Source of the DNA: a virus
Direction: 5' to 3' (one strand)
DNA: 6,845 bases
Virus record (IMG/VR): IMGVR_UViG_3300028829_005090
Span: 1 to 6,845 of that record
Position numbers and translations under genes: made by a program. Below are positions 1-6,845 of this stretch, piece by piece. Position 1 is the stretch's first letter; every line of letters begins with the position of its first letter. The notes below the pieces were generated by a model. The model saw nothing but the letters and a program-made list of their open reading frames with translations, had not been told where the DNA came from and searched no databases.

Positions 1-144
1 ATTGCTGGCGAATGTGTTTCAACTCCTGCACCAGAAGAAAGTAACGAAAATTCAACCGTTAGAATAAAGACTCCTACCGTAACCGAGGGCTTTTATACTT
101 CCCTTTATCCAGACGGTTTTGACGGTCTTTTGAATAGTTCAATC
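1..144. repeat. Terminal redundancy, copy A (identical to 6702-6845)
   Basis: Direct base-by-base comparison of both window ends shows 144/144 identity. Confidence 0.97.
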
Positions 145-363
145 GACGGTTTTAAGTCAGGGCCTTTTTATGAAGGTATGCAACAATTTTCTATTTCCAT
201 TGGCGGTGGTTCTGTACCTAGTTGGAATCTTTGTTTCGATGTAGGTATTGCCAACCTTGGCTGTCATGACCTTTCCGTTCCTGCTTACGTTTGGGACTTT
301 ATTAAAGCTTGTTTACTTATTTGCTCTGCTTTTCTTTGTCGTGCAATAATTTTTGGGGGTTAA
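1..363 (+). CDS. pIII-like minor coat/adsorption protein, C-terminal 120 codons (continuation of 5634-6845 across the circular junction)
   Basis: Position 1 is in phase with the ORF that starts at 5634 (6702 and 1 are both codon starts). It ends ...VWDFIKACLLICSAFLCRAIIFGG-TAA, a C-terminal hydrophobic anchor as in Ff g3p. The 130-363 ORF in the track is only the tail of this gene. Confidence 0.8.
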   Translation: MAGECVSTPAPEESNENSTVRIKTPTVTEGFYTSLYPDGFDGLLNSSIDGFKSGPFYEGMQQFSISIGGGSVPSWNLCFDVGIANLGCHDLSVPAYVWDFIKACLLICSAFLCRAIIFGG

Positions 364-366
364 GTT

Positions 367-681
367 ATGGATTTATTAAATCAAATTTGGAATGACTTTG
401 TTGATTTTTGTTATGCCATTGTCATCTCATTAGTTGAAATGTTAAAGGATTTATTTTTTTGGCTTTATGAAACGGTTACAAATGCTTTGATGTTGCTTGT
501 TAACTCTTTGTCTGATGTATTCAGCCTTTTTGATATCACTAGTTATTTAACTGGTTTACCCGCAGACACTCTTAACATTATGGGCCTAATAGGCTTAGAT
601 ACTATTTCATCAATGATTGTTGCGTCTCTTTTGGTTCGTCTTGTTCTCCAACTAATTCCTTTTGTTCGTTTAGGCTCATAG
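367..681 (+). CDS. pVI-like small hydrophobic minor coat protein (104 aa)
   Basis: The ATG lies 4 nt after the pIII-like stop, with SD GGGGG at 355-359. The protein is largely hydrophobic with several membrane-like segments. It sits between the pIII-like and pI-like genes, exactly as Ff gene VI does (112 aa). Confidence 0.6.
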   Translation: MDLLNQIWNDFVDFCYAIVISLVEMLKDLFFWLYETVTNALMLLVNSLSDVFSLFDITSYLTGLPADTLNIMGLIGLDTISSMIVASLLVRLVLQLIPFVRLGS

Positions 682-689
682 GGGTAATT

Positions 690-1877
690 ATGTCTATTTA
701 TTTAATTTTAGGTCGACCAGGTGGCGGCAAAAGTTATGAAGCCACTGTCTATCATGCACTTAAAGCTTTAAAAGATGGTCGCAGAGTTATAACTAACCTT
801 CCTTTAACTGTTTCCGTATTTGAGAAGGTTTTTGGAGAGGAATTTATTGCTTCACACCTAGAGATAAGAACCGAGGCCATTGGCCCACCTCCTAACATCA
901 AATCCAATGGCATTAACTGGAAGCGTTCACCCTCTGAAAAACTTATTCGAAAGCCATTTTCTACCGTTGAATGCTATCAAGATGATTGGAGGCACCCTGA
1001 CACCGGCATCGGTGCTTTGTTTATCGTTGATGAATGTCACTTTGTTTTGCCTCGTGCTAGCACTCCTGTTGAGGTTTCTAACTGGTATTCGATGCATAGG
1101 CACCATGGCTATGACATTCTTTTAATCTCACAAGGCTATAAAAAAATTAATGCTGACATTATCGACATGGTCGAGTTAGTTTATTTTCTTCAAAAAAACA
1201 AAATGTTAGGCGATGAAGGTTCTTATACAAGGAAAATTAAAGATGGTGTTCGTGGAGCTATTGTCAATGCTGATACTCGAAAGTATCAAAAAGAGTATTT
1301 TAAATATTATAAAAGTCATACAGCCTCTAATTCATCTGTTACTGAAGCTCATGCTCAAGATATTCGCGGCTTTTGGCAAGGTGGTCTTATTCGTTCTTCT
1401 ATTGGGATTTTTGTCTTGGTTGGTATTGGCATTGTCTACAACCTAACAAATATGAAAGATGAGCCTGTTTCCCCTACAGTTGAGCCTATAAAAGAGGTTA
1501 GCTATTCTAGACAACAAGTCCTTGATAGAGCTGATTCTAATAAAAGCACTGTTTTAGCTCCTCCTCCTGTTGTCCCTGTCGCTACTGTAGCTGAGACTAA
1601 AAAAGAAGTTGAAATTAAGGATCATCCTTTTTCTAAATTTGAATTTATAATTAAAGGTCGTTTCTTTATGAATGATGTGCAAGATTTTTCTTTTGTGGCT
1701 ACCCAGAACGGCCAACCGCTTTTCTATGTGACTATGCGTGATTTTTATATGGCAGGTTATGGCCTAGAAGTTCTCGGTGATTGTGCTATAAAAATTACCT
1801 ACAAAGACTTTTATTCTTCTTTTATTAATTGTGGCCTTCCTTCCGTTTCAATGACTGGTACTCAACCAATTAATTAA
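690..1877 (+). CDS. Zot/pI-family P-loop NTPase, filamentous phage assembly protein (395 aa)
   Basis: Walker A GRPGGGKS is encoded at 711-734 at the extreme N-terminus. Walker B LFIVDECH has its DE at 1029-1034. There is a single central TM segment (SSIGIFVLVGIGIVYNL) followed by a roughly 140-aa C-terminal domain. This is the Zot (PF05707) architecture. SD AGGGG is at 679-683. Confidence 0.9.
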   Translation: MSIYLILGRPGGGKSYEATVYHALKALKDGRRVITNLPLTVSVFEKVFGEEFIASHLEIRTEAIGPPPNIKSNGINWKRSPSEKLIRKPFSTVECYQDDWRHPDTGIGALFIVDECHFVLPRASTPVEVSNWYSMHRHHGYDILLISQGYKKINADIIDMVELVYFLQKNKMLGDEGSYTRKIKDGVRGAIVNADTRKYQKEYFKYYKSHTASNSSVTEAHAQDIRGFWQGGLIRSSIGIFVLVGIGIVYNLTNMKDEPVSPTVEPIKEVSYSRQQVLDRADSNKSTVLAPPPVVPVATVAETKKEVEIKDHPFSKFEFIIKGRFFMNDVQDFSFVATQNGQPLFYVTMRDFYMAGYGLEVLGDCAIKITYKDFYSSFINCGLPSVSMTGTQPIN

Positions 1878-1887
1878 TAATTATTTG

Positions 1888-1929
1888 CGCTTATTTGGCC
1901 TAAATAGTTGTACTTTAGCCAAATAGGCG
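1888..1929 (+). repeat. Inverted repeat / ssDNA hairpin directly after the pI-like stop (12-bp stem, 18-nt loop)
   Basis: CGCTTATTTGGC (1888-1899) pairs with GCCAAATAGGCG (1918-1929), with one G-T pair. An alternative inner hairpin TATTT-GGCCT-AAATA is possible. No T-run follows, so it is not a classical terminator. Confidence 0.6.
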
Positions 1930-1935
1930 TATAAT
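1908..1935 (+). promoter_or_regulatory. Sigma70-like promoter candidate for the 2060-2818 cassette
   Basis: TTGTAC (1908-1913), a 16-nt spacer, then TATAAT (1930-1935). It is oriented toward the ATG at 2060 and overlaps the loop and 3' arm of the hairpin. Confidence 0.45.
1913..1934. repeat. Left copy of a split direct repeat bracketing the accessory cassette
   Basis: CTTTAGCC-AAAT-AGGCGTATAA here, versus CTTTAGCC-CGCGGC-AGGCGTATAA at 2813-2836. Identical blocks of 8 and 10 nt, exactly 900 bp apart. Confidence 0.6.
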
Positions 1936-2059
1936 AGAATTCAGAAGTTAAGGGAATGGCAGTCAAACGACAGACTTAAACAAGTCGGAGCAAGGGAAAT
2001 AACCCAGATTAAAAATTACTTCTACTAACTATTAACTAATTAATTAAAAGGAATATCAG

Positions 2060-2221
2060 ATGACTACATTAGAAGATTTAAAACATACGCACATGACGTC
2101 TCTTCAATTGAAACGTAAGCTTGAAAACGTTCGTAATGATAAGACTCTTTCAACAAGTGAAAAGATAGCTAAGAAGCGCGCTTTATGGTCTGAATTTGAA
2201 TCTAAATTTCTTGAGGGTTAA
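2060..2221 (+). CDS. Hypothetical 53-aa charged, helical protein (below the ORF-track size cut-off)
   Basis: My own translation is MTTLEDLKHTHMTSLQLKRKLENVRNDKTLSTSEKIAKKRALWSEFESKFLEG. SD AAGGA (2048-2052) lies 7 nt before the ATG. The stop TAA (2219-2221) is 3 nt before the next ATG, and that gene's SD GAGGG lies inside this ORF's 3' end. This is an operon-like arrangement. Confidence 0.55.
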   Translation: MTTLEDLKHTHMTSLQLKRKLENVRNDKTLSTSEKIAKKRALWSEFESKFLEG

Positions 2222-2224
2222 CTT

Positions 2225-2818
2225 ATGATAGGTAAAACATTTTCTGAATCTTGTAAGTTAATGAATATCTCTAGAGTTCAGTTATCAGATGACACTGGCG
2301 TTCCTATTAAGACACTGGGTACATGGTATAAGACTAAGCCAAAGCTAATGTCAAAGCTCTTTGATTCTTATTCAACAGTTTCTAACTCAGAGCTTAATAA
2401 TGCCCTTTCTGTTATAGAGAGATTAAAAATAACAATCGATACTTTAACAAGAATAAAAGATGATAGATTTAAGACTTACGAGCCTATTGAGCCTATTGAG
2501 CCTATTGAGCCTATTGAGCCTATTGAGCCTATTGAGCTTATTGAGCCTATTGATCCTATTTTTAGTGAATACTTTAAGCAGATTATATTTTTTGTTAAGA
2601 ATTCGATTGTTAAAAGGTGTAATCTTAGTTGTTTAGGTTTCAAGCCCATATCTGTTTCGCCTAACGGTTCTTTCACACCAGAGAGCAGGAATGACTTACG
2701 AACGTACATCAACTGGCTTATTAATCTTAGTAGTGTTGATATCCCCGATTATCAAGATGGAGATCCTACAATAGAGGAAATCATTGATTATGTTGAATCT
2801 TCTAATTCTTTTCTTTAG
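2225..2818 (+). CDS. Putative DNA-binding protein: N-terminal helix-turn-helix, (EPI)n repeat linker, unknown C-terminal domain (197 aa)
   Basis: The N-terminal segment ISRVQLSDDTGVPIKTLGTWYK fits the classic HTH pattern (hydrophobic, G, V/I-s, T-h, W). The central part is YEPIEPIEPIEPIEPIEPIELIEPIDPIF. I do not recognise the C-terminal 85 aa. Confidence 0.75.
   Translation: MIGKTFSESCKLMNISRVQLSDDTGVPIKTLGTWYKTKPKLMSKLFDSYSTVSNSELNNALSVIERLKITIDTLTRIKDDRFKTYEPIEPIEPIEPIEPIEPIELIEPIDPIFSEYFKQIIFFVKNSIVKRCNLSCLGFKPISVSPNGSFTPESRNDLRTYINWLINLSSVDIPDYQDGDPTIEEIIDYVESSNSFL
2480..2560 (+). repeat. Tandem repeat, 9 units of 9 bp (GAGCCTATT), in frame within 2225-2818
   Basis: There are six perfect GAGCCTATT units (2480-2533), then GAGCTTATT, GAGCCTATT and GATCCTATT. 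They encode EPI x6, ELI, EPI, DPI. Confidence 0.97.
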
Positions 2819-2836
2819 CCCGCGGCAGGCGTATAA
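2813..2836. repeat. Right copy of the split direct repeat bracketing the accessory cassette
   Basis: CTTTAGCC-CGCGGC-AGGCGTATAA. It includes the TAG stop (2816-2818) of the 197-aa ORF and matches 1913-1934. Confidence 0.6.
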
Positions 2837-2956
2837 AACAAGCCCAGCGCAGCGCTACTCTAAGGCCAATAGATATTTGTATATTTTAACAAGACCCGAT
2901 CATCATAAATAAGACTTTTACCGCCACTTGTACCAAACCGTCTTTTGATTTTAGGG

Positions 2957-2984
2957 TTTTAATCTTTTAATCTTTTAATCTTTT
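2957..2984 (+). repeat. Iteron-like tandem repeat TTTTAATC x3 (plus a partial fourth unit) upstream of rep
   Basis: TTTTAATC occurs at 2957-2964, 2965-2972 and 2973-2980, followed by TTTT. A degenerate relative, CTTTTGATTTTAGGG, lies just upstream (2942-2956). Confidence 0.85.
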
Positions 2985-2998
2985 TGTAGTATATTTAC

Positions 2999-3018
2999 TT
3001 TTTTATAGATATAAAAAA
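2999..3018. repeat. 20-bp AT-only palindrome TTTTTTATA-GA-TATAAAAAA
   Basis: The 9-bp arms at 2999-3007 and 3010-3018 are exact reverse complements. It lies about 75 bp upstream of the rep ATG and directly after the iteron-like repeats. Confidence 0.8.
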
Positions 3019-3092
3019 AGCGTTTAGCAGTCACCACAACCGCCAAACGCCACCATAAACATTCAAGCCACCAAGCTTACAAGGTTTACAAT

Positions 3093-4448
3093 ATGAATAC
3101 TAATTTACAAACAATTAACAGTCAAGCTCACACATTGGGAGGGGCCCCACGTAGTGGGGAGGGCTCCCAATTTGGTGGGCTTCTTGTTACTGTTACCAAA
3201 AACTCTTCCGCCCCTTTAAAATCAAACACTTGGAGAGCACCGTTTTGTCATCCTAATACTGGTGAAGAGGTCTTTTTTGAGCAACCTAAAAAGGTTCAAA
3301 CAGATTATAGGGCTGATAGGTGGGCTTTTAAATCCGTTGTAAATAAAGTACTACCATTCTCTAGAACTGCCAAGTGTATGAGATTTAGGTCATTTACTGA
3401 CGATGGATTAAGTTTGATTAAAATCATGAAGAGTAAAGACAATAAAGCTTTCTATTCTGGCTTGATGGCTTGCGGTAGTGTTTGGAATTGTCCTATTTGC
3501 GCGGCTAAGATTTCAGAGAAAAGACGTATTGAATTAAAAGATGCTTTGGATGTTGCTAAAGATAACAATTTTAAAACTTTCTTGGTTACTCTTACCGTTC
3601 CCCATGGCATCGGTGACGATTTAAAAGATTTACGTTTAAGAATTAGGAAAGCACAAGGTAAATTATCATCTGGTAGGGCATCTATTAAAAATCAACTTAA
3701 AAATCTTGATTTGGGATATACCCAGCACGGCTTTATTCGTGTTCTCGAAGTCACGCACGGACAAAAAAACGGCTTTCATCCTCATTTGCACATTTTAGTT
3801 TTTACGAGTCAATCGGTAACATCTGAACTTCTCGATTCTGTTTATACTTCAAGTTGGCTCAATGCTTGCGTTTCTTCTGGTTTGCCTTTGCCAACTGAAA
3901 AACATGGTTGCCATGTTCAAGATGGTTCAGTTGCCTCTGACTATGTAACAAAATGGGGCATTGAGGATGAAATGACTAAATCTAATTCTAAAGTCTCGCG
4001 TTCTAATAAAGGTGTTACCCCATTCGGTCTATTAAAATGCATTATTGACGGTGACGATGAATTTTATACACCAGAAAAAGCTACTAAACTTTTCTCCGTT
4101 TATTCAAAATGCTTTAAGGGTGCCCGTCAATTGCATTGGTCAGTTGGACTTAGAAAGCTATTGTCACAAGAAAACGAAGTATCAGACCAAGAATTGGTTG
4201 ATTCTAAAGATGATGAAGCCTTTACCATGGGAGTTCTTAGTTTTGAGCAATGGCAAGTCATACGTAGAAAGAAACTAGAATCTAGCATTTTAACTTTGGT
4301 GGAAACTAGTTCTCTTGATGATTTAAAAAGTTTTATTTTTAACTCTACAAATTTAATCCTTATGTCTCATAAAAACGAACTCGATGCACATAATATTGTT
4401 TCCCCTTTCCCAGAGGACCCCAATTATTACAATCGTTATTTAGAATGA
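3093..4448 (+). CDS. rep: Rolling-circle replication initiator, HUH endonuclease of the pC194/pUB110 Rep_1 type (451 aa)
   Basis: There is a Cys-rich motif CGSVWNCPICAAK (3471-3500 covers C..C). Motif 1 is FLVTLTVPH. The HUH motif HPHLHILVF is at 3777-3803. The Y-x-x-K motif DYVTKW has its Tyr codon at 3942-3944. Order and spacing match Rep_1 (PF01446) plasmid initiators. The stop is TGA at 4446-4448. Confidence 0.85.
   Translation: MNTNLQTINSQAHTLGGAPRSGEGSQFGGLLVTVTKNSSAPLKSNTWRAPFCHPNTGEEVFFEQPKKVQTDYRADRWAFKSVVNKVLPFSRTAKCMRFRSFTDDGLSLIKIMKSKDNKAFYSGLMACGSVWNCPICAAKISEKRRIELKDALDVAKDNNFKTFLVTLTVPHGIGDDLKDLRLRIRKAQGKLSSGRASIKNQLKNLDLGYTQHGFIRVLEVTHGQKNGFHPHLHILVFTSQSVTSELLDSVYTSSWLNACVSSGLPLPTEKHGCHVQDGSVASDYVTKWGIEDEMTKSNSKVSRSNKGVTPFGLLKCIIDGDDEFYTPEKATKLFSVYSKCFKGARQLHWSVGLRKLLSQENEVSDQELVDSKDDEAFTMGVLSFEQWQVIRRKKLESSILTLVETSSLDDLKSFIFNSTNLILMSHKNELDAHNIVSPFPEDPNYYNRYLE
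3134..3171 (+). repeat. GC-rich imperfect hairpin embedded in the 5' coding region of rep
   Basis: ATTGGGAG-GGG-CCCCAC-GTA-GTGGGG-AGGG-CTCCCAAT has an outer 8-bp stem, a G-rich internal loop, an inner 6-bp stem and a 3-nt loop. It also contains GGGGCCCC. It stands out strongly against the AT-rich background and encodes the Gly-rich peptide LGGAPRSGEGSQF. Confidence 0.8.
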
Positions 4449-4687
4449 TCTCTTTTCATTTTCTCTTCTATTGCAATACTCGCGAACTGGCTACTAGTCA
4501 CCACAGTATCTTTACAGTGACTTTTTAGCCTCTCTTTTGTTACATCAAATATTCTTATTGTTGATGTATCTTTGTTTTTCTCAAGATCTTCTATTCTCAC
4601 TGTTTTTCTGAATCCCTCCTCTTTTATTATCTCTCTCGCTACTTCTTTGGCTATTTCTTTTATATTTCTTTTTTCTTCTTCTTGCAT
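4436..4687 (-). CDS. Small charged protein, putative transcriptional regulator (possible ribbon-helix-helix at the C-terminus), 83 aa
   Basis: This is the only convincing minus-strand ORF. I place the start at the ATG at 4687, not the track's GTG at 4696, because that GTG is part of the SD AAGGTGA, which lies 5 nt upstream of the ATG. The segment TIRIFDVTKERLKSHCKDTVVTSSQFASIAIEEKMKR fits a beta-strand, helix, helix pattern. The 3' end overlaps the rep 3' end by 13 nt. Confidence 0.55.
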   Translation of the reverse strand: MQEEEKRNIKEIAKEVAREIIKEEGFRKTVRIEDLEKNKDTSTIRIFDVTKERLKSHCKDTVVTSSQFASIAIEEKMKRDHSK

Positions 4688-4707
4688 TTTATTCACCTTT
4701 TGTTTAT

Positions 4708-4742
4708 TGTGTCGTTATGTGTCGCATTGTGTCACAGTGTGA
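4708..4742. promoter_or_regulatory. Operator-like array: TGTGTC x3 at exact 10-bp spacing, ending in the palindrome TCACA-G-TGTGA
   Basis: TGTGTC occurs at 4708-4713, 4718-4723 and 4728-4733. TCACAGTGTGA is at 4732-4742. The array lies in the 96-bp gap between the minus-strand regulator start (4687) and the ATG at 4784. Confidence 0.55.
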
Positions 4743-4783
4743 TTAATCTTTTCTTACATTTTTTATAATATGAGGCTTTATTT

Positions 4784-5083
4784 ATGAAAGTACAAATGCA
4801 AGTTCTATCAATTGGCTCGGGTACTTTAGAAACTGGCGGCGAATGGGCTAATGCTCACGTTCTTGATAGCAACCAAGTTGAGTTTGACGATGGTACTAGA
4901 CAGGAAAAAGGCTGCAAAGTTGCAAAAATCAAAGTCGATTCCTCTAATGATAACCTTGTTGCTAAACGTTTTTTTAGAGAAAACTTTCCCGCTACTTTTA
5001 CTTTAGAAGTAGATACAAGCGTTAAAAAAGGCGCAATGGAAGTCGTTATCAAAGATTTTTTATCAAACATTAAAACGGCTTAA
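4784..5083 (+). CDS. Putative ssDNA-binding protein (pV-like by size and position), 99 aa
   Basis: SD GAGG (4772-4775) lies 8 nt before the ATG. It is the first plus-strand gene after rep and before the coat genes, and its length is close to Ff gVp (87 aa). I recognise no direct motif, so the assignment rests on position only. Confidence 0.45.
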   Translation: MKVQMQVLSIGSGTLETGGEWANAHVLDSNQVEFDDGTRQEKGCKVAKIKVDSSNDNLVAKRFFRENFPATFTLEVDTSVKKGAMEVVIKDFLSNIKTA

Positions 5084-5086
5084 AAA

Positions 5087-5329
5087 ATGGCTGTTTGTAC
5101 TGAATTTGTCAATGGTTACTTAATGCAAAGCTCTGTTAGCGTTGCAAATTGTACTAATTACATTCTTGTAACTGCTGACGAATACAACTCTTTTGCGAAT
5201 GTTTTCGCATTAGATTCCTCGACAATTACCCTTTGCATTACTTTTGGCTTTGGCATGGTTGTCTCTACTTACTTTTTAGCTTATCCAATAATGATGGCTC
5301 AAAAGATTATTAAACTAATAGGAAAATAA
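5087..5329 (+). CDS. Hypothetical small membrane protein (80 aa), possible minor virion or assembly component
   Basis: The ATG is 4 nt after the upstream stop, suggesting coupling. It has a C-terminal TM-like segment ITLCITFGFGMVVSTYFLAYPIMMA followed by the basic tail QKIIKLIGK. There is no clear SD. Confidence 0.45.
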   Translation: MAVCTEFVNGYLMQSSVSVANCTNYILVTADEYNSFANVFALDSSTITLCITFGFGMVVSTYFLAYPIMMAQKIIKLIGK

Positions 5330-5333
5330 AATT

Positions 5334-5474
5334 ATGGATGCAATTTTAGCAGGTGTGGATATTGGTGCGGTTGCCGCTTGGGTTGGAACAATCGGTCTTG
5401 CAATCGTTGGTATTGCTATGGCTTTTCGTGCAATCTTTTTATCAAAATCCGCTGTTCGTATGGTCGGTAAATAA
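5334..5474 (+). CDS. Major coat protein (pVIII-like), 46 aa, no obvious cleavable leader
   Basis: My own translation is MDAILAGVDIGAVAAWVGTIGLAIVGIAMAFRAIFLSKSAVRMVGK. It has an acidic N-terminus (D2, D9), a hydrophobic Gly/Ala-rich core and a basic C-terminus (R32, K38, R42, K46). This is the canonical inovirus coat layout, and the size is close to the leaderless Pf3 coat (44 aa). SD AGGAAA is at 5320-5325, and a strong terminator follows. Confidence 0.8.
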   Translation: MDAILAGVDIGAVAAWVGTIGLAIVGIAMAFRAIFLSKSAVRMVGK

Positions 5475-5491
5475 TCCAAACGTTCAGTTTT

Positions 5492-5528
5492 AAAGGGGCT
5501 TTTTAGCTCCTTTTTTTTCTTTTTTTTT
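5492..5528 (+). terminator. Rho-independent terminator after the major coat gene
   Basis: The stem is AAAGGGGCT (5492-5500) paired with AGCTCCTTT (5505-5513), with one G-U pair. The loop is TTTT, and a T-run follows (T8-C-T9 spans 5511-5528). Confidence 0.8.
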
Positions 5529-5539
5529 GGGGGTTTATT

Positions 5540-5641
5540 ATGGTTACTGGTCTAGTTAGTGCTTTTTGCTATACGTGCTTTGTAATGCTTGGCGCTTTGA
5601 TGGGCGATGTTCTTGTTAAAGGGATACATAAACATGCTTAA
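5540..5641 (+). CDS. 33-aa hydrophobic protein, pVII/pIX-like minor coat candidate
   Basis: My own translation is MVTGLVSAFCYTCFVMLGALMGDVLVKGIHKHA. SD GGGGG (5529-5533) lies 6 nt before the ATG. Its stop overlaps the pIII-like start (ATGCTTAA, 5634-5641). The size matches Ff pVII (33 aa) and pIX (32 aa). Confidence 0.5.
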   Translation: MVTGLVSAFCYTCFVMLGALMGDVLVKGIHKHA

Positions 5642-6845
5642 ATTTATTTTTCTTTTTATACCTGCTTTTTTCATTTTTTCCACTTCCTCCTTTGCCGATG
5701 AAATTCCTGCAACTTTAAATCATTTTCCTACTGGTACATGTAAACCTTATCAAAACTTAGGTGACTTTTCTTATAATGTCACTTTTGAAGCTTGTTTTTC
5801 TGAAAAATCCGCTCTTGCCGCCCAAAGAGGTCGCAATGTTGTCCCTGTTTATCCTACATTGGAATCTGACGGCACTTATTCAAATGGTGGCGGTTATTAT
5901 TATAATGACGGCTTAAAATTTACCGCTTTTAGTTTTACAACTACTAATGTCGTTAGCTCTTATTCTTGTGATGACCCTGCTTATCCTGAGATGTCTCAAG
6001 ATGGAAAAAGCTGCTTAAATAGTTTCGGTGGCGCTTCTTCTGAGCTTGACCAATTTATAGAGAATAAAGCTGATTTAGAGATTGCCTTTGATGCTTTAGA
6101 TACAAATGTCATTGATCCTAACTTAGAAGCTATGTCTAATATTAATAATTCTATTGACGAACAACTCGATGCTACAGCCCAAGCAATGGCAAACGTTGAT
6201 AATATTACTCAAATTAATGATAATGTTAAAACTTTGTCTGATTTATCCCCTGATAATTCTTCTTTGCAATCTCTTTCTAATATTGCCAATTCTATTGATA
6301 TTGAGAGCCAAGCACTTCTATCAGATTCTTTTGAAAATGTCACAGGAATGATTAATCAACGTTCAGATGCTACAGCTATTTTTAATTCTTCTAATCAATT
6401 TGCCGGATTTGCTCAAGATGGAATCGAATATTATTATGGACTTGGAGAGCAACTTTATACAGCAACTAGCCAGTCTCAAGTAGATAGCATTTCCGATAGT
6501 ATGGCTCAAGCTATGAGCGAAATTAATTCTAATATTGAACAATCCTATACAACTTCATCTGAAATAAATAACTCGATTAATATTATTAATTCTTTAGCTA
6601 CTGAAAATAATAACAACATTGCACAAATTTCTAATAACAATCAAACAGCTTTAAATATTAATAGTGAATCCTCCAATGCTTCTTCGAACGGTGAGACTTG
6701 TATTGCTGGCGAATGTGTTTCAACTCCTGCACCAGAAGAAAGTAACGAAAATTCAACCGTTAGAATAAAGACTCCTACCGTAACCGAGGGCTTTTATACT
6801 TCCCTTTATCCAGACGGTTTTGACGGTCTTTTGAATAGTTCAATC
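5634..6845 (+). CDS. pIII-like minor coat/adsorption protein, N-terminal 404 codons; runs off the window end and continues at 1-363 (476 aa in total on the circle)
   Basis: Hand translation found no stop from 5634 to 6845. The signal peptide is MLKFIFLFIPAFFIFSTSSFA, followed by DE. A 4-Cys N-terminal domain is followed by a long Asn/Ser/Asp/Ile-rich central region. The C-terminal anchor is encoded at 1-363. The ORF is missing from the track because it has no stop inside the window. Confidence 0.8.
   Translation, partial: MLKFIFLFIPAFFIFSTSSFADEIPATLNHFPTGTCKPYQNLGDFSYNVTFEACFSEKSALAAQRGRNVVPVYPTLESDGTYSNGGGYYYNDGLKFTAFSFTTTNVVSSYSCDDPAYPEMSQDGKSCLNSFGGASSELDQFIENKADLEIAFDALDTNVIDPNLEAMSNINNSIDEQLDATAQAMANVDNITQINDNVKTLSDLSPDNSSLQSLSNIANSIDIESQALLSDSFENVTGMINQRSDATAIFNSSNQFAGFAQDGIEYYYGLGEQLYTATSQSQVDSISDSMAQAMSEINSNIEQSYTTSSEINNSINIINSLATENNNNIAQISNNNQTALNINSESSNASSNGETCIAGECVSTPAPEESNENSTVRIKTPTVTEGFYTSLYPDGFDGLLNSSI
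6702..6845. repeat. Terminal redundancy, copy B (identical to 1-144)
   Basis: Direct comparison shows 144/144 identity. Confidence 0.97.

Follow-up and report, generated by a model that had tools for sequence, protein, structure and literature searches.

The DNA described here is IMG/VR record IMGVR_UViG_3300028829_005090, analysed over its full length of 6,845 nucleotides (nt) and referred to below as the window. It carries genes for a rolling-circle initiator (Rep), a gene V-like protein, a short coat protein, pIII-like and pVI-like minor coat proteins and a pI/Zot-like morphogenesis ATPase, along with several small open reading frames (ORFs), and is very probably the complete genome (6701 nt, with a 6674-nt repeat-length variant) of an episomal filamentous single-stranded DNA (ssDNA) phage of marine origin, an inovirus sensu lato within the Tubulavirales. 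The genes follow a modular order of replication, structure and assembly and lie almost entirely on one strand, with a gene at 4436–4687 alone in antisense; features are on the plus strand unless stated, and repeats without a strand are identified as such. An earlier, sequence-only reading had proposed one complete circular inovirus-like genome with a full filamentous-phage gene set in canonical order. The set is present, together with the minus-strand gene that the reading had not listed, and the gene profiles and a second circular assembly support the proposal.

The first 144 nt of the window (1–144) recur exactly at its end (6702–6845), both copies being strandless direct repeats, which leaves a unit of 6701 nt; an exact terminal match this long could not plausibly arise by chance. 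A search for proteins exactly identical to the pI-like product led to a second assembly, L005 (ENA ERZ27295583 k141_6161952, 6815 nt), which has its own terminal overlap of 141 nt and a unit of 6674 nt starting at window position ~3022. L005 is continuous across the 6701/1 junction of the window and differs from it solely by 27 nt, corresponding to three fewer units of a 9-nt repeat; it therefore describes the same circle, as the sequence-only reading had anticipated from the terminal repeat. The end duplication is an assembler overlap, and the circle was cut arbitrarily within the pIII-like gene. Two shorter contigs are 100% identical to parts of the window and contain no host DNA: L006 (Logan SRR5204267) over 148–2509 and L010 (JGI 3300004097) over 5138–6440. 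A small circular genome of 6701 nt, recovered in two differently permuted assemblies, agrees with the ~5–15 kb and circular form of inovirus genomes (Roux et al. 2019, PMC6813254).

The gene interrupted by the ends of the window encodes the pIII-like adsorption/minor coat protein. Its 5′ part runs from the ATG at 5634 to 6845 and continues through 145–363 after joining, while its 3′ part, with a conserved C-terminal domain that matches PHROG profiles and a membrane anchor, occupies 1–363, the stop codon being at 361–363. Position 1 is in frame with the ATG at 5634 because the intervening 1068 nt are exactly 356 codons, and the left copy of the overlap encodes residues 357–404. The predicted single frame, from a signal peptide at 5634 to this stop, holds: the joined ORF encodes 476 amino acids (aa) and is uninterrupted in L005. 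A typical Sec signal peptide (MLKFIFLFIPAFFIFSTSSFA/DE) is followed by a Cys-containing N-terminal domain, an Asn/Ser-rich repetitive middle, the conserved C-terminal domain and a hydrophobic anchor that ends in ACLLICSAFLCRAIIFGG. Residues ~283–476 match phrog_4544 (E = 7e-20), phrog_31956 (1e-18) and phrog_19407 (9e-15). The joined protein aligns end to end, unbroken over the junction residues, with its counterparts in two related phage contigs, L007 (E = 9e-86) and L011 (E = 2e-36), with which it shares the C-terminal sequence FLCRAxxFGG. L011 (ENA ERZ27295583 k141_6070014, 6212 nt) is a nearly complete sister inovirus.

Downstream of the pIII-like gene lies a gene for a 104-aa pVI/Ace-like minor coat protein (367–681), which matches phrog_974 (9e-12), phrog_306 'Ace-like' (5e-10) and, under its cut-off, Pfam DUF2523 (8e-4). 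It is followed by the gene for the 395-aa pI/Zot-like morphogenesis ATPase (690–1877), with matches to Zot PF05707 (97.8 bits against a cut-off of 20.3, E = 7.5e-28) and phrog_197 (8e-65), a Walker A motif (GRPGGGKS), a Walker B motif (FIVDECH) and a transmembrane segment at residues ~245–265. The pI protein is 32–47% identical to inovirus assembly proteins in tblastn. A pI/Zot-like ATPase is the marker used for inovirus detection (PMC6813254), and the window carries one. The major coat protein (5334–5474) is leaderless and has 46 aa, acidic at the N-terminus, hydrophobic in the core and basic at the C-terminus, in keeping with the short (~30–90 aa) single-transmembrane coats encoded near pI in inoviruses. 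It matches phrog_3354 'major capsid protein' (1e-12) and phrog_6548 'major coat protein' (4e-11) and is 48–55% identical (tblastn) to annotated coats of Vibrio fs1/VSKK-type phages (VSKK, ND1-fs1), Pseudomonas phage 17897 (CoaB) and WC36-1.

Two small hydrophobic products accompany the coat protein, and their assignment is less certain. ORF80 (5087–5329) encodes a small protein with a C-terminal hydrophobic segment, matches phrog_2924 (1e-13) and phrog_969 (2e-10), shares 69% identity with its counterpart in L007 and 43% with that in L011, and is a candidate minor virion or assembly protein in the pVII/pIX position. ORF33 (5540–5641), preceded by the ribosome-binding site GGGGG, encodes 33 hydrophobic aa, and its stop codon overlaps the pIII-like start at ATGCTTAA. 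Its aa identity to L007 is 76%, and a 32-aa hydrophobic ORF was read by eye at the equivalent site of L011; this product is a candidate small minor coat protein. Between the coat gene and ORF33, directly after the former, an intrinsic terminator-like hairpin with a T-run (5492–5523), for which L007 has the homologue GGGGCTTTCATAGCTCC with a T-run, probably attenuates the highly expressed transcript of genes V to VIII.

Replication of the circle would depend on a 451-aa rolling-circle initiator (3093–4448), which profile matches and alignment place in the Rep_1 (pC194/pUB110) superfamily (PF01446, 49.2 bits against a cut-off of 33.2, E = 6.5e-13; phrog_11698, 1e-68). The profile similarities that had been predicted for the Zot, coat and Rep_1 genes are in this way all significant. 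In an alignment of 22 Rep sequences, the invariant residues comprise a Cys cluster (C127, C133, P134, C136), motif I (T166, T168, H171), the HUH motif (H229-P-H231-x-H233) and Y284-x-x-K287-W288; the window Rep reads H229-P-H231-L-H233 and Y284-V-T-K287, and these HUH and Tyr motifs are presumably catalytic. More than 1100 proteins, nearly all on contigs of 1.8–3 kb, form the closest relatives of Rep at 45–58% identity, and the homologues listed all carry PF01446. Named relatives include the 'protein rep' of Photobacterium damselae, Vibrio parahaemolyticus and V. cholerae, and the best matches in PLSDB are the Aeromonas plasmids pAhX22, pAerI and pAerIV (2.3–3.0 kb, 47–51%). Among phages, the best matches are blackswan219-6 (37%), PMBT54 (31%) and Propionibacterium phage B5 (~27%). 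An exact Rep protein look-up returned no record, and a scan of genome_contigs with Rep turned up just relatives of 52–60% identity, on tiny contigs; none was an integrated copy, and none was a close relative from a named host. NCBIfam profiles gave a weak IS91 transposase match alone, in line with HUH ancestry, and PDB sequence searches with Rep, the antisense protein and ORF197 gave nothing meaningful.

The plus-strand origin is most likely not intergenic but situated within the 5′ part of rep. Here a conserved DNA island at 3180–3214, within rep codons 30–41, forms a candidate double-strand (plus-strand) origin, CTTCTTGTTACTGTTACCAAAAACTCTTCCGCCCC, which reads CTTGTTA..GTTACCAAAAA on the coding strand; a cognate origin would be expected to carry a nick core of the CTTG/ATA type on that (displaced) strand. 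The island consensus, cccCTTGgTA..GtTACcAAAAc..CTTCc.cCc, lies on the rep strand ~100 nt upstream of the conserved Rep core and is near-invariant over 10 replicons with GC contents of 31–63%, the flanks showing no conservation. Its carriers are 2–3 kb Rep_1 plasmids of Aeromonas, Vibrio, Shewanella and Pseudomonas, as well as phages, with the island at 1303 in L001, 2366 in L002, 843 in L013, 239 in L014, 244 in L015, 94 in L016, ~4318 in L019, 1693 in L020 and 5686 in L011; some plasmids have it ahead of the rep start as annotated. More distant Rep_1 plasmids (Cupriavidus pTJ86-1, Comamonas, A. baumannii p3AB5075, B. licheniformis pBL63.1) carry the CTTGGTA core in a matching relative position, as does L007, a phage with a divergent Rep. 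Plasmid pC194 is nicked within CTTG/ATA. Its origin is TTCTTTCTTATCTTGATAATAAGGGTAAC (PMC7072734). By analogy, the nick in the window is predicted between G3186 and T3187, and the island probably represents a double-strand origin that has gone unannotated in a very large family of 2–3 kb cryptic plasmids.

A GC-rich hairpin (3134–3171) lies just upstream of the island. The folds of the origin region, IG2 and IG3 were not significantly more stable than those of shuffled sequences, and no k-mers of at least 9 nt were common to the intergenic regions and the Rep-related plasmids. Two other origin candidates were set aside: the canonical pC194 sequence CTTGATA occurs only inside other genes (1521 and 4862; on the minus strand 975 and 2750), and TTGTAC, present in the IG1 loop and in IG2 at 2928, is not enriched as a nick motif (5 found against 3.2 expected). 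The sequence-only reading had interpreted the intergenic structures as origin, packaging and switch elements; an intergenic plus-strand origin now seems unlikely, and packaging and switch roles are putative for the elements discussed below.

Several observations on Rep-bearing contigs stand apart from the phage itself. Rep relatives of 52–60% identity occur on tiny low-coverage contigs assigned to phylogenetically unrelated bacteria, namely L001 (Shewanella sp.), L002 (Streptomyces sp. P17 NODE_166, coverage 2.3), L003 (Bullifex porci) and L004 (Pollutimonas NODE_223, coverage 1.2). The origin island of L002, with 6 bases on each side, exactly matches that of the V. parahaemolyticus plasmid contig L013. 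These four contigs look like small-plasmid contaminants or cross-sample carry-over, not residents of those genomes. L019 (P. aeruginosa NZ_CP124661.1, 7695 nt, deposited as a 'plasmid') consists of two head-to-tail copies of a ~3.85-kb Rep_1 plasmid; one rep copy is annotated shorter, probably an assembly or annotation artefact, and L016 (Aeromonas pAerIV) carries a 48-nt tandem duplication at ~344–440, inside the 5′ part of rep.

The gene V-like ORF (4784–5083) encodes 99 aa and matches phrog_14411 (3e-9), a family with no assigned function. Its position and size are those of the ssDNA-binding-sized ORF noted previously, and an ssDNA-binding role is plausible, if tentative. The AlphaFold2 (AF2) model, with a predicted local distance difference test score (pLDDT) of 50, shows a b1-b2-b3-a-b4-b5 topology of the oligonucleotide/oligosaccharide-binding (OB) type, and its top ~45 Foldseek matches in the PDB are nearly exclusively OB folds of SSB, PriB and Rim1 proteins (E = 4e-3 to 7e-2, TM ~0.5). 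The protein had no match in PDB sequence searches and none that was informative in Pfam.

Between rep and the gene V-like ORF, the minus strand carries an 83-aa gene for a putative ribbon-helix-helix (RHH) repressor (4436–4687; ATG at 4687, ribosome-binding site AAGGTGA), which converges on rep with a 13-nt overlap. The gene is kept in place and orientation in L011 (70% aa identity) and L007 (54–55%). Its product gave sub-threshold matches to RHH profiles (RHH_5, E = 0.005; RepB-RCR_reg, 0.01; Arc-like phrog_582, 0.003), and a single-sequence AF2 model shows a beta-alpha-alpha pattern at residues 43–81 with a pLDDT of 62. This model had no Foldseek match, and hhalign against CopG gave a probability of 1.5%. 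The 96-nt divergent region that separates the antisense gene from the gene V-like ORF contains strandless 10-nt-phased TGTGTC(G/A)C repeats (4706–4741; Tandem Repeats Finder (TRF) period 10, 3.6 copies), which end in a TCACAGTGTGA palindrome and overlap -35-like hexamers. Promoter-like sites on the minus strand are found at 4735–4706 and 4715–4686. The phased repeats are kept in L011, and L007 has a GTGTCAC...GTGACAC inverted repeat. The antisense protein and the repeats may together constitute a repressor-operator switch over divergent promoters.

Directly downstream of pI, the intergenic region IG1 contains a conserved hairpin or palindrome of 17–18 bp with the loop AGTTGTAC, followed by TATAAT (1886–1931). 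Its DNA fold has a z score of -2.3, and it is conserved in L011 and in L008, with two compensatory pairs in the latter; L007 has a partial copy. IG1 is 93% identical to L011 at the nucleotide level, though the flanking pI genes share just 44% aa identity. Collection scans for the IG1 hairpin pattern returned nothing. The hairpin may be a minus-strand origin or a packaging signal, or else a palindromic operator acting on a promoter of the genes downstream.

These downstream genes appear to form an accessory or regulatory module. ORF53 (2060–2221) encodes a small charged helical protein with 81% aa identity to ORF54 at the same position of L011 and no family match in Pfam, PHROG or NCBIfam profiles. 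ORF197 (2225–2818) encodes a putative N-terminal helix-turn-helix (HTH) domain (a weak HTH_26 match, E = 0.025), an (EPI)n linker and a C-terminal domain; over its first 75 aa it shares 57% identity with an HTH ORF of 78–85 aa that stands alone in L011. The linker is encoded by an in-frame tandem repeat of the 9-nt unit GAGCCTATT (2480–2560, TRF score 148), which is present in 9 copies in the window and 6 in L005 (6160–6213 region); the L006 contig breaks within the array. The two complete assemblies differ in this copy number and nowhere else, and the (EPI)n array has the appearance of a regulator linker that is hypervariable or phase-variable.

The intergenic region upstream of rep (IG2, 2819–3092), again 93% identical to L011 at the nucleotide level, has short GC-rich hairpins, an AT-rich tract and 3.5 copies of the iteron TTTTAATC (2957–2984), and is probably the rep promoter and regulatory region. 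It also contains a hairpin at 3019–3051. On the minus strand, this hairpin, with 15 pairs and a T-run, is the strongest terminator-like site of the window, and L011 conserves it. The site coincides with the end of no minus-strand gene; it may stop antisense transcription or form part of the architecture of the origin or promoter. No tRNA or Rfam element was found in the window.

The genome is a mosaic with co-occurring sister phages, its module boundaries lying near 1880, 4700 and 5090. L011 and L012 (the latter from JGI 3300004097) come from the same datasets as fragments of the window phage, and their replication and regulation block is close to that of the window (Rep 85–88% aa, IG1 and IG2 93% nt, gene V-like 72%), whereas their structural block is divergent (pI 44%, coat 57%, pIII-like 35%). 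L007 shows the opposite pattern, with pI at 76%, the pVI-like protein at 84% and coat at 78%, but Rep at just 34%; its structural proteins are 69–84% identical to those of the window, except for the N-terminally divergent pIII-like protein. The synteny of L007 and L011 is identical to that of the window, including the antisense gene and ORF33. L020 (Logan ERR11749014, 5771 nt) has a Rep of the same clade (51%) and the origin island, along with a Phage_coatGP8-type coat and a DUF5455 protein, and its structural module is, as judged by these genes, unrelated to that of the window. The pattern in L011 is evidence of recent module exchange within one community, and the mosaicism fits the finding that replication modules are the most exchanged inovirus genes (PMC6813254).

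No similar nucleotide record emerged when the whole unit was compared with phages by megablast and blastn and with plasmids by megablast, and pI peptide scans of viral_contigs and metagenome_contigs returned nothing. A set of 5.8 billion proteins contains just three pI proteins above 40% identity (72%, 61% and 43%). The best deposited pI proteins are 32–36% identical over their full length (silverpheasant213, Pseudomonas phage 17897, Vibrio phages) and 44–47% in the N-terminal domain (WC36-1, Vf33/VALG type). Related contigs can be traced to one named site, the North Sea, through a single marine metagenome, Ga0055584 (JGI 3300004097; PMC12324236). The named relatives of both modules are mostly from aquatic Gammaproteobacteria, and the host is probably a marine gammaproteobacterium.

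In its architecture, the window resembles the Vibrio phages of the fs1/VSK/VGJ/VEJ group (Fibrovirus and relatives) and the Vf33/VALG type, which have genomes of 6–8 kb without a secretin. The gene order of the fs1 group is the same, running from rep through a gene V-like gene, a small ORF, a short coat, an ORF of ~30 aa (29 aa in fs1, at the position of ORF33), pIII-like, pVI-like and pI/Zot genes to small accessory ORFs, and the proteins of fs1/Vf33-type phages are recognisably related (pI 32–44%, coat ~48%). The window nevertheless has zero nucleotide similarity to these phages, no dif-like attP that could be found, a different Rep lineage (tblastn of the phage collection with Rep returned no Vibrio phage) and its antisense regulator between rep and gene V, where theirs is upstream of rep. 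A similar size and gene order also characterise the metagenomic inoviruses silverpheasant213 and blackswan219-6, the Pseudomonas phages 17897 and PMBT54, and the deep-sea phage WC36-1. The best pI identities in this group are 36% and 35% over the full length and 47% for the N-terminal domain (WC36-1), and the best coat reaches 55% (WC36-1). Because all identities are below 60% and no single deposited phage matches both modules, the window phage would represent a new species at minimum and, probably, a new genus.

The replication module leads to other known systems. The small Rep_1 plasmids (Aeromonas pAhX22, pAerI and pAerIV; Vibrio, Photobacterium and Shewanella plasmids of 2–3 kb) share the Cys cluster, motifs I–III and the DNA island with the window, their Rep proteins being 46–58% identical to its own; unlike it, they have no morphogenesis genes, and their island reads CTTGGTA in place of CTTGTTA. 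Plasmids pC194 and pUB110 and phage phiX174 have initiators of the same HUH superfamily and a nick core of the CTTG/ATA type. In pC194 the origin lies upstream of rep, in contrast to the candidate origin inside rep in the window, while phiX174 has its origin inside its own initiator gene A. Propionibacterium phage B5 (Bifilivirus) provides a further inovirus with a Rep_1-type initiator (26–27% identity over 70% of the length); it differs in its Gram-positive host, and its structural module is absent among the pI matches. Compared with Ff-type phages (genus Inovirus: M13, fd, f1), the window has no pIV secretin and a Rep of the Rep_1 rather than the Phage_CRI type. Finally, it differs from inoviruses that integrate by XerCD/dif (CTXphi, VGJphi, fs1 type) in that a dif-like attP was not found.

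We weighed the reading of the window as a complete phage genome against three others. In one, which has a slim chance of being right, phage-derived genes are carried by a non-viral plasmid with rolling-circle replication, or by the remnant of a defective inovirus, and virions are no longer made. The closest Rep relatives are overwhelmingly plasmids of 2–3 kb, no secretin-sized or secretin-like ORF was found in the window by ORF listing or Pfam profiles, and the virus is known here from its genes alone; yet many inoviruses normally lack a secretin, and the core morphogenesis genes (coat, pIII-, pVI- and pI-like, and the small hydrophobic ORFs) are all intact. These genes are also syntenic and conserved at the protein level across diverged relatives, which argues for selection for function.

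Still less probable is an integrated prophage, excised in silico from a host chromosome, in which the 144-nt repeats would be attachment site (att) duplications. In formal terms, att sites could account for the direct repeats at the two ends, and many inoviruses integrate, such as those of the fs1, VGJ and CTX types. Here, however, the repeat lies inside an essential gene that is intact only with the ends joined. Host sequence beyond the repeats, which the sequence-only reading had named as the sign of an integrated element, was found on none of the contigs that carry window sequence, all of which are at most 6.8 kb, and the two assemblies circularise at different breakpoints. Neither an integrase nor a transposase ORF was detected in the ORF list or in a Pfam profile search of the window. 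A search for a dif-like attP (XerC arm, 6–8-nt spacer, XerD arm) gave no composite site with an E. coli/Vibrio-type consensus, which may not be that of the host; the sole near XerD arm, at 2788–2798, has no XerC arm. Given the read-through of the junction in L005, which is broken elsewhere and by itself effectively refutes integration, the absence of host flanks and the unbroken alignments of pIII-like homologues, the att reading is excluded for practical purposes. An assembly chimera, or an artefactual circle joining two related phages, has a negligible probability: closely related mosaic phages do occur in the same datasets (L011, L012), a chimera-prone situation, but two assemblies with different k-mer overlaps (144 and 141 nt) give the same sequence over 6674 nt, and L006 and L010, from other datasets, are 100% identical to it over module boundaries.

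Some points weigh against parts of the reading of the window as a phage genome. L005 may share its sample with the window or come from a related one, in which case the assemblies are independent and the biology perhaps not, and both the circle and the phage are known here from assembled sequences. The models behind the ssDNA-binding and RHH assignments are of low confidence, and the profile matches behind them fall below threshold. For the origin, the phage core CTTGTTA is one base off the plasmid consensus CTTGGTA, which leaves it a candidate nick site. Because a conserved peptide (LGxVTKTSSP) is encoded by the island as well, constraint on the protein could account for a share of the conservation, which is thus not a matter of DNA alone.

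Taken as a phage genome, the window suggests the following cycle. The Rep_1-type HUH protein would nick the plus strand at CTTG/TTA, ~90 nt into its own gene, and start rolling-circle replication, and the 99-aa OB-like protein would coat the displaced plus strands. The hairpin just after gene I may serve as minus-strand origin, packaging signal or both. The leaderless 46-aa coat, ORF80, ORF33 and the pVI-like and pIII-like proteins would wait in the inner membrane, from which the pI/Zot ATPase would extrude the filament through a secretin of the host, since none is encoded by the phage. Expression is probably controlled by the antisense RHH-like repressor, acting on the 10-nt-phased repeats of the divergent promoter region, and by the HTH protein encoded after gene I.

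A further suggestion, which we consider rather unlikely, is that rep and its origin are a portable cassette common to an abundant family of 2–3 kb cryptic plasmids of aquatic Gammaproteobacteria and to several unrelated inovirus structural modules (the window, L011, and L020 with its different coat family), with the plasmids as possible satellites and the (EPI)n array tuning a switch. The nesting of the plus-strand origin inside rep is what would make the two a single portable cassette. If phage Rep and plasmid origins cross-react, the plasmids could become ssDNA in trans and even be packaged, which would make them phage satellites. The phase-variable (EPI)n linker of the HTH regulator could tune the switch.

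With thousands of inoviruses already catalogued (PMC6813254), the window leaves the current understanding of inoviruses unchanged and is a sound, ordinary example of a well-known kind of virus. It adds a complete and well-delimited genome of a divergent marine inovirus lineage, with a pI at most 47% identical to that of any deposited phage. Together with its sister contigs, it also provides a clean natural example of module swapping, in which the replication and regulation block is 80–93% identical to that of one co-occurring phage. The most useful by-product is a testable prediction of the origin, as an island inside rep that is common to many tiny Rep_1 plasmids; such an island, shared by both kinds of replicon, would explain how this initiator moves so easily between plasmids and filamentous phages.

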